A stretch of 64,000 nt of DNA from an uncultured Alphaproteobacteria bacterium (GTDB lineage: Bacteria; Pseudomonadota; Alphaproteobacteria; RF32; CAG-239), in assembly GCA_944392275.1 (NCBI GenBank), contig CALXWA010000004.1, forward strand, positions 20,562 through 84,561. Reading direction: 5' to 3'. The notes under the pieces are model-generated. The model saw only the letters and a program-made list of their open reading frames with translations. It was not told the DNA's origin and did not search any database. The stretch's first letter is position 1; every line of letters starts with the position of its first letter. Positions 55,849-60,788 of the stretch are shown here, one piece after another. The position numbers and the translations under genes were made by a program.

Positions 55849-55886
55849 CTCAATATAAAAACATTTTGTTTGAAGGAGAAATAAAA

Positions 55887-56414
55887 ATGGCGTGGACAGA
55901 TCAAATGGTCGAAGACCTCAAAAAAATGTGGAAAGAAGGTCTGACAACGGGAGAAATCGGAAAACGGCTTAACGTATCCAAAAACTCTATCGTTGGAAAA
56001 GTTCACCGTCTGGGCTTATCAGGACGTCCTTCACCAATTAAGAAAAAAGAAGAGACCACCCCAAAAGCAACAGAAAACAAATCTGCTTCTCCTAAACCGG
56101 CTCCGGAAAAGGCGGCACCTTCCAAAGCTCCGGCCAAAACAAATGTAAAACAAAAACCAGCAGAAACCCCAAAAGACAATTTTCAAACCTGTCTCAACAA
56201 AGAATTAGAAAAAAACTTTCTTTCTCCCAACAATAAAGAGAAGAAAAACAATGGCTTTGTTACGCTGACGGACTTAGACAGCCATACCTGTCGTTGGCCG
56301 ATAGGTGACCCCAAAGATGAAAACTTTCATTTTTGCGGCAAAAAGGTTAAAATCGGCCAAACATATTGTGAAGAACACGCGGCCATTGCCTATGTGAAAC
56401 CTTCTAAAAAATAA
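55887..56414 (+). CDS. gcrA: cell-cycle regulator GcrA
   Basis: MAWTDQMVEDLKKMWKEGLTTGEIGKRLNVSKNSIVGKVHRLGL, a flexible linker, and the conserved C-terminal domain. Trimmed to the ATG at 55887, preceded by an AAGGAG RBS. Confidence 0.85.
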   Translation: MAWTDQMVEDLKKMWKEGLTTGEIGKRLNVSKNSIVGKVHRLGLSGRPSPIKKKEETTPKATENKSASPKPAPEKAAPSKAPAKTNVKQKPAETPKDNFQTCLNKELEKNFLSPNNKEKKNNGFVTLTDLDSHTCRWPIGDPKDENFHFCGKKVKIGQTYCEEHAAIAYVKPSKK

Positions 56415-56480: not shown

Positions 56481-57287
56481 ATGTCTGTAAGTATGTTGAT
56501 TGCGTTTATCGCAGGCATTGCGGTAGTTATCGGTTCAATTGTCAGTGCAACCGACCGTCCGCAAATGTTTATTGATATTCCGAGTATCATTATTGTTTTT
56601 GGCGGAACATTTGTAACCCTTTTTATATCATATGAACTTAAAACGGCTCTTGGAGCCTTGAAATTGATTGGTCAGTCCTTCAAAAGACATGATGATTCGA
56701 TTAAATCCCTAAAAAATGAAGTTGGTCGCCTTATTCGTTGGGGGTATCTTGTCCAAAAGAACGGACTTCAAGGCCTTGAAAATGAAGTCAATGATGATTT
56801 ACGCAAAGAAAATTCCTTTTTGGCTTATGGTGCCGATTTGGTTATAACCGGCTATACCGGAAATGAAATACGCCAAATTTTACTCGATATGCTGGAAGCA
56901 CAAGCCGAACGCTTGAAACGACCGGTAGATGCCTTAAAAAAGATGGGGGGCGATGCTCCGGCTTTTGGTATGCTCGGGACCTTAATTGGGTTGGTTATTA
57001 TGCTTGGCAGCATGGGTGGAGATCCGGCGGCGATTGGTCCAAGTATGGCTGTTGCGTTAATTACAACATTTTATGGTATTATTCTTGCCCGTATCGTTAT
57101 GATTCCGATTGGTACAAAAATGGCCGCTCGAATGGATGTCACTTTATTTAAGTACAACCTCGAACTGGAAGGTCTGGTTCTTTTAGCCGAAAGAAAAAGT
57201 CCTCGCTACATTCAAGATAAAATCAACTCATTTGTCGATGACAATGAACAATTCTTGATTGATCGCGACATGGACAGAGGCTCTTAG
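56481..57287 (+). CDS. motA: flagellar motor stator protein MotA/PomA
   Basis: 4-TM MotA/TolQ/ExbB family. Conserved PAFGMLGTLIGL in TM3 and a cytoplasmic loop; 268 aa. Followed by motB. Confidence 0.85.
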   Translation: MSVSMLIAFIAGIAVVIGSIVSATDRPQMFIDIPSIIIVFGGTFVTLFISYELKTALGALKLIGQSFKRHDDSIKSLKNEVGRLIRWGYLVQKNGLQGLENEVNDDLRKENSFLAYGADLVITGYTGNEIRQILLDMLEAQAERLKRPVDALKKMGGDAPAFGMLGTLIGLVIMLGSMGGDPAAIGPSMAVALITTFYGIILARIVMIPIGTKMAARMDVTLFKYNLELEGLVLLAERKSPRYIQDKINSFVDDNEQFLIDRDMDRGS

Positions 57288-57302
57288 TTCGGAGAGATAT
57301 AA

Positions 57303-57959
57303 ATGAAAAAAAAGTCTGAAGATAAAATTGATGAAGATTGGATGTCGACCTATGGTGACATGGTCACATTACTTCTGTGCTTTTTTGTCATGATGGTTTC
57401 CGTTTCCAAAACAGATGTTGCTAAATTTGAGATGATTCAAGCCGGCCTAAACGAAAGCATAGGCAAACAAAGCGTCACTCGCCCGATTGAAATGATGTTG
57501 ATGGAACTTGCTGAAGATGTTCAGTCTTTAAGTGCAGAAGACAGCATTGCCTTAGGGAGCGATACGCAAGGAGTTGTAATTGAACTTGGCGATAATCTAA
57601 TTTTTGATCATGGCTCTGCTGAACTCAAACCAGAGGCTATTCCCGTGCTAAAAAGAATTGCGGCCACACTCCAATCCGAAAGATACAGCTCTTTCAATTT
57701 TAGTATTGAGGGACACACCAGTGATGAGCCGTTTTCCAGTGCTTTATACCCTTCCAATTGGGAATTATCTTCCGCACGAGCCGCCGCTGTTGCTCGCTTT
57801 TTGGAAAAAAGAGGGATTCAAAGAATGCGTCTAAAAATAACCGGAATGTATGATATTGCACCTAAATATCCCAATTTAGACCCCTATGGACAACCCATCC
57901 CGCAAAATCGAGAAAAGAACAGACGTGTGGTTATCCATGTTGAACCATCCTTTTTATAA
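57303..57959 (+). CDS. motB: flagellar motor protein MotB (OmpA-like peptidoglycan-binding domain)
   Basis: N-terminal TM with WMSTYGDMVTLLL plug/TM motif, and a C-terminal OmpA-like domain (NWELSSARAAAVARFL). Confidence 0.85.
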   Translation: MKKKSEDKIDEDWMSTYGDMVTLLLCFFVMMVSVSKTDVAKFEMIQAGLNESIGKQSVTRPIEMMLMELAEDVQSLSAEDSIALGSDTQGVVIELGDNLIFDHGSAELKPEAIPVLKRIAATLQSERYSSFNFSIEGHTSDEPFSSALYPSNWELSSARAAAVARFLEKRGIQRMRLKITGMYDIAPKYPNLDPYGQPIPQNREKNRRVVIHVEPSFL

Positions 57960-57984
57960 AAAAAGCCCTTCAGGGCTTTTTTTT
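57958..57984 (+). terminator. Rho-independent terminator of motAB
   Basis: Hairpin AAGCCCT-TCA-GGGCTT followed by T9. Confidence 0.8.
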
Positions 57985-57988
57985 TATT

Positions 57989-57996
57989 TAATAATT
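57989..57996. repeat. left copy of the 8-bp target-site duplication AATAATTA
   Basis: Identical octamer immediately outside both terminal inverted repeats; the other copy is at 60076-60083. Confidence 0.75.
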
Positions 57997-58023
57997 AGGC
58001 TCTATTAAACAATTTTGTTGAAA
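57997..58023. repeat. left terminal inverted repeat of the IS1595-family element (GGCTCTATTAAACAATTTTGTTGAAAT)
   Basis: 27-bp perfect reverse complement of 60049-60075. Confidence 0.85.
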
Positions 58024-58108
58024 TATACTCTAAATAAAATCCTTGCTAAATTATTTGATAAGAATTTACAATGTAATTCTGATTAATAATTTATGAAAAG
58101 GATTTTTA

Positions 58109-58333
58109 TTGCCAAATAATACTTTTGAAGATTTCAAAAAATTTTTAGATAATTTTCCTGAAAAATTTGAATCTTTTAATCTGGATATTAACCTTAATGA
58201 ATGTACAATTACTGTTACAATTCATTATTCCAAAACATTTACTGCTTCATTAGGAAAATTTATATGTACTTCTGATGATTTATTTCAAACATATAATGAA
58301 TTGGCTATTTTTCTTAAAGAGAGAGTTAGATAA
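58109..58333 (+). CDS. passenger ORF, 74-aa hypothetical protein (TTG start)
   Basis: Inside the IS element. AAGGA RBS 7 nt before the TTG. No similarity recognised. Confidence 0.35.
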   Translation: MPNNTFEDFKKFLDNFPEKFESFNLDINLNECTITVTIHYSKTFTASLGKFICTSDDLFQTYNELAIFLKERVR

Positions 58334-58579
58334 TAATCTTTTTATGATATTTGATTCTTTTATTATATCAGTATTGTTATTGATAGTTTGATGAATTTCC
58401 AATTTTGGAATAAATTTTACAATATTTAATTTTCTATTTTTCATAACAAAAATCTCCTAATCTTATACAAGTATTTATAAGGAGATTTTTGTTATTTGTG
58501 AATCAAATAATTTTTTCTTTGACTTTTCATTATTTAAGTTGATAATTTATCATATTGAATATCATTGAAAGGTCTAAAA

Positions 58580-59041
58580 ATGTCATATGTAAAAGGAACT
58601 CTATCAAAAGATGAGGAAATTAAAGAAGTTGTGAAACTGCATTGGTTCAATTATATTTTTACAGGTATTATAGCTTTTGTTGCTCTACTTTTTGTAATTT
58701 CTTATTTTGCAAGTGCTGAATTACAAAAAGACCCAGGAACAAAATGGATTGTTATACTTTTTGTTCTATGGGCATTATATGATTTCCTAAAATTATATAC
58801 AACCGAAATGGTTATAACCAATAAGAGAGTTATATGCAGAAAAGGCATTATTAGCGTAAAAACAGAAGAATTGAAAAATGCAAAAGTTGAGTCTATTGAG
58901 ATTAAACAATCAATATTAGGAAGAATTTTTGGGTATGCTACTATTTGGTTTTCAGGAACAGGAACATCAAAAGTAAAATTTGAAGCTGTTGATGACCCTT
59001 GGGCAATAAAAAGCCGAGTGGAGTCAATCATTGGTGATTAA
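58580..59041 (+). CDS. passenger gene: bacterial PH-domain (bPH_2, YdbS/YdbT-like) membrane protein
   Basis: Two TM helices, then a PH-like module (VITNKRVICRKGIISVKTEELKNAKVESIEIKQSILGRIFGYATIWF). The ORF-track TTG at 58565 was trimmed to the ATG at 58580, which has a GAAAGG RBS. Confidence 0.6.
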   Translation: MSYVKGTLSKDEEIKEVVKLHWFNYIFTGIIAFVALLFVISYFASAELQKDPGTKWIVILFVLWALYDFLKLYTTEMVITNKRVICRKGIISVKTEELKNAKVESIEIKQSILGRIFGYATIWFSGTGTSKVKFEAVDDPWAIKSRVESIIGD

Positions 59042-59077
59042 TTTTTTGAAGTGGTGTATTTTTACACCACTTTTATT

Positions 59078-59986
59078 TTATCCCAATAAACAATCTTTTA
59101 TCAACAAATTATTATCGGCACCTGATTTAATCCAACTAAACCAGTTCAAATAATTAGTTAAATATCGGGTGCTGATTCCGTTAAAATGCCTTACAAAATC
59201 TTTCAAACCTTTGTGATAATTGCTTACATTGTTAATATGATATTCTCCGTTTTTATGCTTACCTCGTGCTATTCTCTTATGTTGTAAATTGTGATTTTTA
59301 GCAAATTGAATATATGATTTATGGGAATCTGTTACCAAAATTGAATCTTCTTCAATCTTATTGCCTAAAACATTTTCTGTTTGTTGGGTTGTTAATCGCC
59401 CTCTACCATAAACATCAGAAATAATATTTTTGTTTCCATCCATAGCAACCATTATACCGATTTGGTAATGAGAAATACCTCTTAATTTTGCTTTACCACC
59501 TCTTTTTCTGCCTTTTATACCCTCAATTTTCTTACCTTTATGAGATTCAAGCAAAAATGTTTCATCTGCTTCTACAACACCTGAAACAGTTGTATTTTGA
59601 AACTGTTTTTTGATAGCATTTAAAACCTTATGTCTCCAACGAAAAGCAGTTAAAACAGATATACCACATTTAGGAGCAATTTTAGCAAGTGATAAACCTG
59701 TCATCATCAATTCAATGTATTTGAACCAAGTGTCATAATCTTTTTTAGTGCTGAAAAATATTGTTTTCGTATATTCAGTAAAGGTCTTACCACAATCTTT
59801 ACATCTATATCTTTGGATACCACTACTGCTACCAAATTTCTGAATATGTTTTTTTCCACAAATGGGACAAACAACACCATTTTCAAATCTTTTTACAGAA
59901 GTTTTAGATTTTTGAACTTTGCTGAAAAGATGTTTCAGTTCTTCCTCTGATAACTTTTTTAATTGCTCTAATAAATCTTGATTCAT
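59078..59986 (-). CDS. IS1595-family (ISXO2-like) transposase
   Basis: N-terminal zinc ribbon (CPICGKK...CKDCGK) and a DDE domain; 302 aa. Flanked by the terminal inverted repeats. Confidence 0.85.
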   Translation of the reverse strand: MNQDLLEQLKKLSEEELKHLFSKVQKSKTSVKRFENGVVCPICGKKHIQKFGSSSGIQRYRCKDCGKTFTEYTKTIFFSTKKDYDTWFKYIELMMTGLSLAKIAPKCGISVLTAFRWRHKVLNAIKKQFQNTTVSGVVEADETFLLESHKGKKIEGIKGRKRGGKAKLRGISHYQIGIMVAMDGNKNIISDVYGRGRLTTQQTENVLGNKIEEDSILVTDSHKSYIQFAKNHNLQHKRIARGKHKNGEYHINNVSNYHKGLKDFVRHFNGISTRYLTNYLNWFSWIKSGADNNLLIKDCLLG

Positions 59987-60048
59987 TTTACCTATCCCTT
60001 TGTTTTATATAAGTATTATAAGGGATTTTATGAAAATTGTCAAGCCAT

Positions 60049-60075
60049 ATTTCAACAAAATTGTTTAATAGAGCC
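60049..60075. repeat. right terminal inverted repeat of the IS1595-family element (ATTTCAACAAAATTGTTTAATAGAGCC)
   Basis: 27-bp perfect reverse complement of 57997-58023. Confidence 0.85.
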
Positions 60076-60083
60076 AATAATTA
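60076..60083. repeat. right copy of the 8-bp target-site duplication AATAATTA
   Basis: It overlaps the TAA stop (60081-60083) of the phosphatase gene, so the duplication regenerates the stop codon. Confidence 0.75.
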
Positions 60084-60668
60084 AAATAAATCACCGTCAA
60101 CGGCAAATTTTTCTCCGTCAAACATAAGGCAAAAAGCCGCACAATTAGGAATTTTAGCAAACGGATAATGAAAATAATTTAATAAAGAAGCCATCGTTCC
60201 GCCATGGATGGCAACACCGACAACATCAAAAGGATTATCCTTTCTTTGTGCTAAATGATGCAAAACGCCCAGAACTCGATCCAAAGCCTCTTGCTTACTC
60301 TCTCCTCCCGGAAAACGAATATCCCAACATTTCGGATTGCTCCAATTGTTAAGGACATCGGGAAACTCTTGTCGAACATTCTCTAAAGCTTCACCTTCGG
60401 CTTTACCATAAAAACATTCACGTAAATTATATTCAACCTCTACAGAAATATTGAGTTCGCGGGCAACAATTTCTGCCGTTTGGCGAGCTCTTAGCAAGGG
60501 AGAAGAATAAATAATTTGCAAATTTTTTCTTCTTAATTTTTGAGCCAAATCAAAAGCTTGCTCTCTTCCCAAAGGATTAAGAGGATAATCCATACCGGAT
60601 CCTTGCATTCTACCCAAAGAATTCAATTCTGTTTCGCCATGACGAAAAATATAAAACGCTTTAACCAT
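60081..60668 (-). CDS. histidine phosphatase (phosphoglycerate mutase) family protein
   Basis: RHGETELN catalytic motif. Trimmed to the ATG at 60668, because the longer ORF would overlap tRNA-Gly. Confidence 0.75.
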   Translation of the reverse strand: MVKAFYIFRHGETELNSLGRMQGSGMDYPLNPLGREQAFDLAQKLRRKNLQIIYSSPLLRARQTAEIVARELNISVEVEYNLRECFYGKAEGEALENVRQEFPDVLNNWSNPKCWDIRFPGGESKQEALDRVLGVLHHLAQRKDNPFDVVGVAIHGGTMASLLNYFHYPFAKIPNCAAFCLMFDGEKFAVDGDLF

Positions 60669-60682
60669 TGAAAAACTTTCAC

Positions 60683-60708
60683 AAAAAAATCCGGAACACG
60701 GTCCGGAT
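60683..60708 (-). terminator. Rho-independent terminator following tRNA-Gly
   Basis: Hairpin ATCCGG-N8-CCGGAT, followed on the minus strand by T7. Confidence 0.5.
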
Positions 60709-60713
60709 AAAAT

Positions 60714-60788
60714 TGGAGCGGGCGGCGAGATTCGAACTCGTGACTTCAACCTTGGGAAGGTCGCACTCTACCGCTGAGTTACGCCCGC
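60714..60788 (-). tRNA. tRNA-Gly (anticodon CCC)
   Basis: 75 nt on the minus strand: GCGGGCG acceptor, anticodon loop TTCCCAA, T-loop TTCGAAT, and 3' TCCA. Confidence 0.85.

Follow-up and report, generated by a model that had tools for sequence, protein, structure and literature searches.

The 64,000-nucleotide stretch analyzed here, hereafter the window, comes from an uncultured alphaproteobacterium of about 39% GC and carries, between motB and a convergent histidine-phosphatase gene, an insertion sequence (IS) of the IS1595 family. The element contains two passenger genes and a transposase gene that faces them, all enclosed by perfect 29-bp terminal inverted repeats (TIRs) and flanked by an 8-bp target-site duplication (TSD). 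We regard it as very probable that it is an autonomous, passenger-carrying IS1595 element, i.e., a "transporter IS" (tIS), inserted at this site.

The Element and Its Insertion Site

The left TIR, on the cargo side, lies at 57998-58026 (+) and the right one, on the transposase side, at 60047-60075 (-). They include the 27-mer GGCTCTATTAAACAATTTTGTTGAAAT at 57998-58024 (+), with its exact reverse complement at 60049-60075, and the complementarity extends 2 bases beyond it, giving 29 perfect base pairs. The original prediction had placed perfect 27-bp repeats at 57997-58023 and 60049-60075: they are indeed perfect and the right-hand coordinates stand, while the left repeat had been displaced by one position and the true length is 29 bp. 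With up to 3 mismatches allowed, there are no further copies of the 27-mer in the 64-kb window, and it does not occur in 100 dinucleotide-preserving shuffles of the window. The 29 bases of the left TIR are identical in two related elements described below (L023 and L042).

Since the octamer AATAATTA directly flanks both 29-bp repeats, at 57990-57997 and at 60076-60083, the element can be delimited as 57998-60075 (2,078 bp). The alignment of filled and empty sites sets the insertion boundaries at the outer ends of the TIRs, and the octamer is present as a single copy in the empty sites, which bears out the 8-bp duplication that had been proposed.

The insertion point is the 33-bp spacer that separates motB from the phosphatase gene (60081-60668, -), convergent with it. 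The motB terminator hairpin is located at 57958-57983 and the insertion adjoins its T-run; on the other side, the target octamer ends with the triplet that serves as phosphatase stop codon (60081-60083, TTA on the + strand), and the right-hand copy keeps this stop attached to its gene. The element is where it had been predicted to be, with the motB terminator on one side and the phosphatase stop, inside the duplication, on the other. motB, its terminator and the phosphatase open reading frame (ORF) are all intact after the insertion, but the shared hairpin, with its A and T flanks, no longer adjoins the phosphatase gene; a weak hairpin (60091-60106) exists on the phosphatase side.

The composition of the element sets it apart from the chromosome, as had been stated: its GC content is 27.2%, versus 39.3% in the remaining window (39.1% in the 5 kb on its left, 40.7% in the 3.9 kb on its right), and when the window is divided into 64 bins of 1 kb, the two over the element have the lowest GC. 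The cargo half, with 24.8% GC, departs even more from the host composition than the transposase half does.

Empty and Filled Sites

Conspecific contigs were retrieved from metagenomes by exact-sequence look-up of MotB. Over 2 kb, the flanks of those with an empty site (L013-L020) match the window at 99.2-99.6% identity; in these contigs, motB is followed by 33 bp and then by the convergent phosphatase gene, with one AATAATTA. Aligned with the two junctions of the window, these contigs read ...GGGCTTTTTTTTTATTTAATAATTAAAA(T/C)AAATCACC..., and the empty site that had been predicted, ...TTTATTTAATAATTAAAATAAATC..., is present letter for letter in L020 and with one single-nucleotide polymorphism (SNP) in L013, L015 and L017. 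The entire 2,078 bp, cargo included, are missing from the empty sites. In turn, several samples and several assemblers independently yielded contigs with the filled site (L001-L006, L009, L011, L012), two of which, L002 and L009, cover the element plus both flanks.

The filled alleles differ by 0-0.3% from the element of the window (6 differences over 2,078 bp in L002; 2 over 1,188 bp in L001), and their flanks are 98.0-99.6% identical to those of the window, i.e., as diverged as the empty alleles; contigs L004-L006 are identical. In the allele shared by L009, L011 and L012, an A-to-T change turns Arg61 of the transposase into a stop codon, and in L009 (2400-4260) a 309-bp deletion, corresponding to 58078-58386, removes the first passenger ORF. 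The 3′ end of motB and its terminator are also rearranged in L009, where MotB has 212 amino acids instead of 218. Furthermore, in one sample the contig carrying the element (L003) has a coverage of 9.9, versus 18.2 for the adjacent chromosomal contig (L022), a halving that fits a mixture of strains with filled and empty sites.

In the host species, filled and empty sites segregate as a presence/absence polymorphism, with some alleles already decaying. The qualification of "recent" holds insofar as the element is present in some members of the species and absent from others, but the insertion is not new: the flanks have diverged by up to about 2%, SNPs have accumulated, and a nonsense allele and a deletion exist. 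Moreover, one contig consists of the element plus 2 bases (L007) and another begins at the first base of the element (L008), as a collapsed repeat would give, an indirect indication that those samples may contain the element with different flanks.

The Transposase

The transposase gene (59078-59986, -) encodes, as described, a protein of 302 amino acids. It matches the IS1595 family transposase model NF033547 (185.4 bits, cutoff 75), the DDE_Tnp_IS1595 domain PF12762 (E 1.2e-10; 42 bits, cutoff 27; profile positions 2-150 of 153), the Zn_ribbon_IS1595 domain PF12760 (26 bits, cutoff 25.4) and NF050000 (51 bits, cutoff 28). The proposed family, with its Cys4 zinc ribbon and DDE core, is supported by the first three, all above their cutoffs. 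In an alignment with 113 homologues, the cysteines C40, C43, C62 and C65 are kept in 112-113 of the 113, and D141 and D220 vary little or not at all. To our knowledge, the zinc finger or zinc ribbon of IS1595 transposases is missing solely in the IS1016 group.

The catalytic motif of the family consists of D, D and one of E, N or H, followed by K seven residues on. Because the segment HINNVSNYHKGLK aligns with the catalytic signature HINGIENFWSQAK of the IS1016 group (PMC12561309), the third catalytic residue is placed at position 255 and the conserved lysine at position 262 (K262), a placement that rests on the signature as quoted in that work. Position 255 (codon 59222-59224, -) is occupied by Ser in the window, by Asn in 112/112 aligned homologues and by Glu in the IS1016 signature. 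Ser255 is common to a subclade whose transposases are 94-98% identical to that of the window, with elements at no fewer than four insertion sites (the window, L046, L050 and L057). As this subclade occupies other sites with 8-bp TSDs of their own, the substitution predates several insertions. Either Ser255 would be tolerated, or Asn-type relatives whose ends are the same, such as L042, would mobilize in trans the elements that carry it. We had considered the substitution as a sign of a dead copy, an idea that was downgraded in view of the Ser255 elements at other sites; it may rather represent a tolerated "DDS" variant of the triad.

A candidate promoter of the transposase gene, TTGACA-17-TATAAT (60015-60043, -), matches the sigma-70 consensus in 12/12 positions and lies 4 bp inside the right repeat. 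As a side observation, the first codons of the transposase (D-L-I/L-E-Q) spell GATTTAATAGAGCA in relatives, which resembles the repeat terminus TTTAATAGAGCC; similar sites are found at 59960-59973 of the window (GATTTATTAGAGCA, one mismatch), L023:4010-4023 and L024:670-684. This likeness could be due to chance or could reflect an internal transposase-binding site.

Cargo Genes and Internal Sites

The presence of passenger DNA inside the element was rightly anticipated: an ORF of 74 amino acids and a bPH_2 gene lie between the repeats and both are gone from the empty sites. Genes unrelated to transposition enclosed by the repeats, and absent where the element is absent, are what characterizes a transporter IS.

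Next to the left end, a candidate cargo promoter, TTGCTA-18-TACAAT (58043-58072, +), faces inward; its second hexamer is TATAAT in relatives, and it belongs to a terminal stretch of 110 bp that is 92% conserved among them. Passenger ORF 1 (58109-58333, +; 74 amino acids) begins with TTG in the window and with ATG in the alleles L002 and L007. An exhaustive HMMER search among library representatives assigned its product to no family and retrieved two relatives, 91% and 44% identical, the latter equal in length. AlphaFold2 predicts an alpha-beta3-alpha fold with a mean confidence (pLDDT) of 83.5. This ORF is probably a real orphan gene.

A hairpin with 19-bp arms (58443-58495) separates the two passenger genes. 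About 100 bp around it (window 58394-58515; L023:5590-5860; L042:1440-1660) are 74-77% conserved, while the adjoining cargo ORFs are unrelated. A putative promoter of the bPH_2 gene, TTGACT-16-GATAAT (58519-58546, +), is a consensus match. The conserved hairpin stretch, together with the promoter-like site, may mark a point of recombination or of regulation in the cargo module.

Passenger ORF 2, the bPH_2 gene (58580-59041, +), encodes 153 amino acids from its ATG, or 158 from a TTG at 58565; in the product, two predicted transmembrane helices precede a bacterial PH domain (PF03703, E 2.3e-13). The sole match of the cargo in PHROGs is the generic PHROG 3707, "membrane-flanked domain" (E 1.2e-24), obtained with this protein. 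Between the convergent bPH_2 and transposase genes there is a terminator-like hairpin (59048-59073), detected on the + strand, which would also end the transposase transcript.

Homologues of the bPH_2 protein also exist outside such elements. One of them (P0133, 67% identical) is encoded next to rpsF-rpsR-rplI, and another (P0126, 80% identical) in an island with an excisionase-like helix-turn-helix (HTH) gene and a PLD-nuclease gene. Of the homologues located outside these elements, the closest, 80% identical, is that of L028 (1769-4421), within a conserved four-gene block that comprises a tRNA_anti-like OB-fold protein, a PLDc_2 nuclease, the bPH_2 protein and a 124-amino-acid orphan, and that comes after an excisionase-like HTH_17 gene. 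This block may be a defense-type island.

Related Elements

A scan of species-representative genomes located the closest relatives of the element in metagenome-assembled genomes (MAGs) of Alphaproteobacteria, one of them from a rumen sample, and in the protein database some 20 transposase clusters at 60-92% identity all derive from metagenomes or from such MAGs. Eight related elements are considered here as relatives; three further contigs (L025-L027) carry transposase fragments at contig ends and are uninformative.

Four relatives carry small ORFs: L023 (2,267 bp; TSD AAAACAAA), L024 (2,161 bp, its left end at a contig end), L042 (1,946 bp, a contig made of the element only, Asn-bearing and with identical 29-bp repeats) and L046 (TSD AAAAATAA), inserted between a cold-shock gene and rplQ. 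The other four harbor complete type II restriction-modification (RM) systems formed by an N6_N4 methyltransferase, an endonuclease and an HTH controller. The system of L050:2914-6388 (TSD ATTTCAAA), with a BstXI-like endonuclease, is found again at another chromosomal site in L057:2912-6385 (TSD TAAAACAA); that of L034:3446-6544 (3,099 bp; TSD AAAAAAAA) is MamI-like, and L043, whose left end was not found, bears another one, with an unassigned endonuclease. The transposases of these four elements are 64-95% identical to that of the window and their inverted repeats are homologous. Altogether, five relatives (L023, L034, L046, L050 and L057) combine near-identical repeats with 8-bp TSDs of their own and, the window included, none of the six TSDs has more than a single G or C.

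The small cargo ORFs of the window, L023, L024, L042 and L046 have no detectable similarity to one another in an all-against-all BLASTP. The idea that they could be fast-evolving orthologues was dropped for that of unrelated cargo in view of this null result among the five elements. At the nucleotide level, the window shares with L023 and L042 the transposase module (85-88%), the 110-bp end on the cargo side (92%) and the hairpin region of about 100 bp (74-77%), and nothing beyond these three parts. As only these parts are common, the element of the window can be seen as one variant of a backbone whose cargo has been exchanged.

Comparison With Known Systems

The transposase has 195 matches in a plasmid collection, all below 60% amino acid identity. 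The best 25 of the 195 are named or unnamed IS1595 transposases at 37-44%; among these 25, the closest named elements are ISClsp5, ISCaje6, ISBwe1 and ISBth19 (40-43%), with ISCpe8 and ISSag10 also listed. The nucleotide search against plasmids gave a single 83-bp match, to ISCaje6, and that of the element against phages gave none. Several IS1595 subgroups include members with passenger genes, such as ISPna2+, ISNwi1+ and ISNha5. The claim that cargo distinguishes this element from most IS1595 copies does not stand, since passenger-carrying IS1595 elements had already been described (PMC5704250) and 8/8 relatives have cargo.

The IS1595 family goes back to Siguier, Gagnevin and Chandler (2009; ISfinder). 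A zinc finger, a DDE domain and duplications of 8 bp are its defining traits (PMC8101967), and the element of the window resembles its members in having a single transposase ORF, with an N-terminal zinc finger and a DDE_Tnp_IS1595 domain, and an 8-bp TSD; it differs from them by the Ser at the E/N/H position.

The closest known counterparts are tISCpe8 of Clostridium perfringens and MTnSag1 (tISSag10) of Streptococcus agalactiae. Both carry a lincosamide-resistance gene, measure 1.7-2.0 kb, have 25-bp repeats and insert into AT-rich targets with 8-bp direct repeats; MTnSag1 has also been seen in circular form, and a replicative route was suggested for it (PMC5704250). As in the window, one IS1595-type transposase and passenger DNA are contained within TIRs (there of about 25 bp), and the 8-bp direct repeats, the AT-rich targets, the zinc ribbon and the D/D/K positions are also shared. 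However, their transposases are merely 37-41% identical to that of the window and have Asn instead of Ser at the third catalytic position, their hosts are Firmicutes and not a Gram-negative alphaproteobacterium, and their cargo is a lincosamide nucleotidyltransferase gene co-directional with the transposase gene, whereas the two passenger genes of the window are convergent with it. The resistance gene of MTnSag1, inside which its oriT is located (PMC5704250), is absent from the window element. Furthermore, conjugative mobilization has been shown for tISCpe8 and MTnSag1. A possible promoter formed across the abutted ends of a circular intermediate was also considered and rejected, the spacing giving no convincing fit.

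A transposon-like RM unit reported from Neisseria combines a transposase-like gene with 26-bp repeats and a duplication of 8 bp (Furuta, Abe and Kobayashi, 2010, PMC2853133). Four relatives of the element (L034, L043, L050 and L057) are similar to such units in having a type II RM system and its controller between TIRs, with 8-bp TSDs in L034, L050 and L057; the element of the window, for its part, is devoid of RM genes. The transposases of these relatives are intact and of IS1595 type, while the mobilizing activity of the units was left open in that study (PMC2853133).

Mechanism and Alternative Explanations

By analogy with its family, the transposase would be made from the consensus promoter just inside the right repeat and would use its N-terminal zinc-ribbon and helix-turn-helix region to bind the 29-bp ends. 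The target, A/T-rich DNA, would be cut with a stagger of 8 bp, the DDE-type core (D141, D220, S255, K262) would join the ends to this cut, and the repair of the resulting gaps would generate the 8-bp duplication. The cargo module, i.e., the 74-amino-acid orphan and the membrane-anchored PH-domain protein, would be read inward from the left end, and the terminator-like hairpin would part it from the transposase gene. Besides, phosphatase transcripts passing the weak hairpin at 60091-60106 could lead to sense read-through into the transposase gene.

Other origins of this arrangement must be considered. An assembly chimera, or a repeat misjoin in the MAG, could be invoked because assemblies break at the ends of the element (L010, L021, L022) and L007 is almost element only; yet the junctions are identical in the independent assemblies, L002 and L009 run through into both flanks, and the duplication and the empty site agree to the base, so that we give this explanation virtually no chance. 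Likewise, the "passengers" could have been pre-existing host genes next to a plain 1-kb IS, the left repeat being a chance occurrence or a surrogate end, and the bPH_2 homologue P0133, an ordinary chromosomal gene in other Alphaproteobacteria, would be in line with that origin. This is nevertheless refuted by the empty-site alignment, where the whole 2,078 bp are missing; the low GC of the cargo and the conservation of the cargo-side 110 bp, 29-bp repeat included, in relatives with other cargo point in the same direction, and we consider it extremely improbable. The independent filled assemblies, the two spanning contigs and the empty sites, taken together, rule out a chimera and indicate that the passenger genes came with the element.

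The most serious objection accepts a genuine IS1595 insertion but takes it for a non-autonomous relic, whose transposase was inactivated by the Asn-to-Ser change and which would persist vertically, spread by homologous recombination of its flanks or move in trans thanks to an Asn-bearing relative. Indeed, Ser255 contrasts with the Asn of all aligned homologues, Asn-bearing relatives with identical 29-bp repeats exist (L042, for example), one site is documented for the exact protein, the filled alleles reside on diverged flanks (98.0-99.5% identity) outside the identical contigs L004-L006, and decay is under way, as the stop at position 61 in L009, L011 and L012 and the 309-bp deletion in L009 attest. 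Several other observations weigh against an autonomous, cargo-bearing element: Ser255 could make this copy catalytically weak or dead; wherever flanks could be recovered, the contigs with this exact transposase show one and the same site, and no second copy was seen within the 64-kb window; the promoter and terminator calls are consensus matches and not functional evidence; the predicted fold of the 74-amino-acid protein has no significant PDB match (best E 0.3); and PADLOC gave no meaningful match for the cargo ORFs of the window element, L023 and L024 or for the transposase of the window. On the other hand, the Ser255 subclade is present at at least three other sites (L046, L050, L057) with intact 8-bp TSDs and different cargo, the ORF is intact, the consensus promoter and the repeats are perfect, and the third residue reportedly varies already (E, N, H) among IS1595 subgroups. 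On balance a relic seems unlikely to us; the element would more likely be autonomous and probably active, and it is plausible that it is still able to transpose.

A broader reading, which we put forward only tentatively and hold to be rather doubtful, joins these elements into an undescribed IS1595 clade of gut and rumen Alphaproteobacteria acting as a modular cargo platform, with the 74-amino-acid and bPH_2 proteins as a defense- or exclusion-type module and Ser255 as part of an active "DDS" triad. The backbone of such a platform may consist of the transposase module and the 29-bp repeats, to which the members with small cargo may add the 110-bp promoter-bearing end and the hairpin segment, and the exchanged 1-2.5 kb may correspond either to RM systems or to small membrane and orphan proteins.

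Significance

The finding itself is ordinary and would not surprise a specialist, since passenger-carrying IS1595 elements were already known. It is of modest interest, worth a note, for the cargo-swapping clade that includes RM systems and for the Ser at the third catalytic position. In terms of annotation, an IS of an uncultured alphaproteobacterium is now delimited to the base, matched with its empty site and assigned to a family, and the insertion constitutes a natural presence/absence marker for strain tracking. Moreover, a single IS1595 backbone with unrelated cargo, up to whole RM systems, bears on how small defense and accessory genes spread without plasmids or phages. Ser255, in a lineage present at multiple sites, is a test case for the tolerance of the DDE triad, and the read-through from the phosphatase gene could couple the expression of the transposase to that of a host gene.

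Neighboring Genes

Upstream of the insertion, a gene for a GcrA-family cell-cycle regulator (55866-56414) is located immediately 5′ of motA-motB (56481-57959); within this analysis, the host is placed in the Alphaproteobacteria by this gene and by the names of the MAGs with related elements. The motB terminator is polymorphic between strains (window 57958-57988 versus L013:4663-4681), with loops TTCA and TTTG and runs of T9 and T7, respectively, and the assemblies L021 and L022 end exactly at it. Downstream of the insertion there are a 93-amino-acid orphan gene and a large pyruvate:ferredoxin oxidoreductase gene; the gene neighborhood is compatible with an anaerobic alphaproteobacterium. Finally, a tRNA-Gly (CCC) gene (60714-60788, -) overlaps the longest phosphatase ORF (60081-60749, TTG start, 222 amino acids) in its 5′ extension, and the true start of the phosphatase is most likely the ATG at 60668 (195 amino acids), which matches the calls on metagenome contigs.

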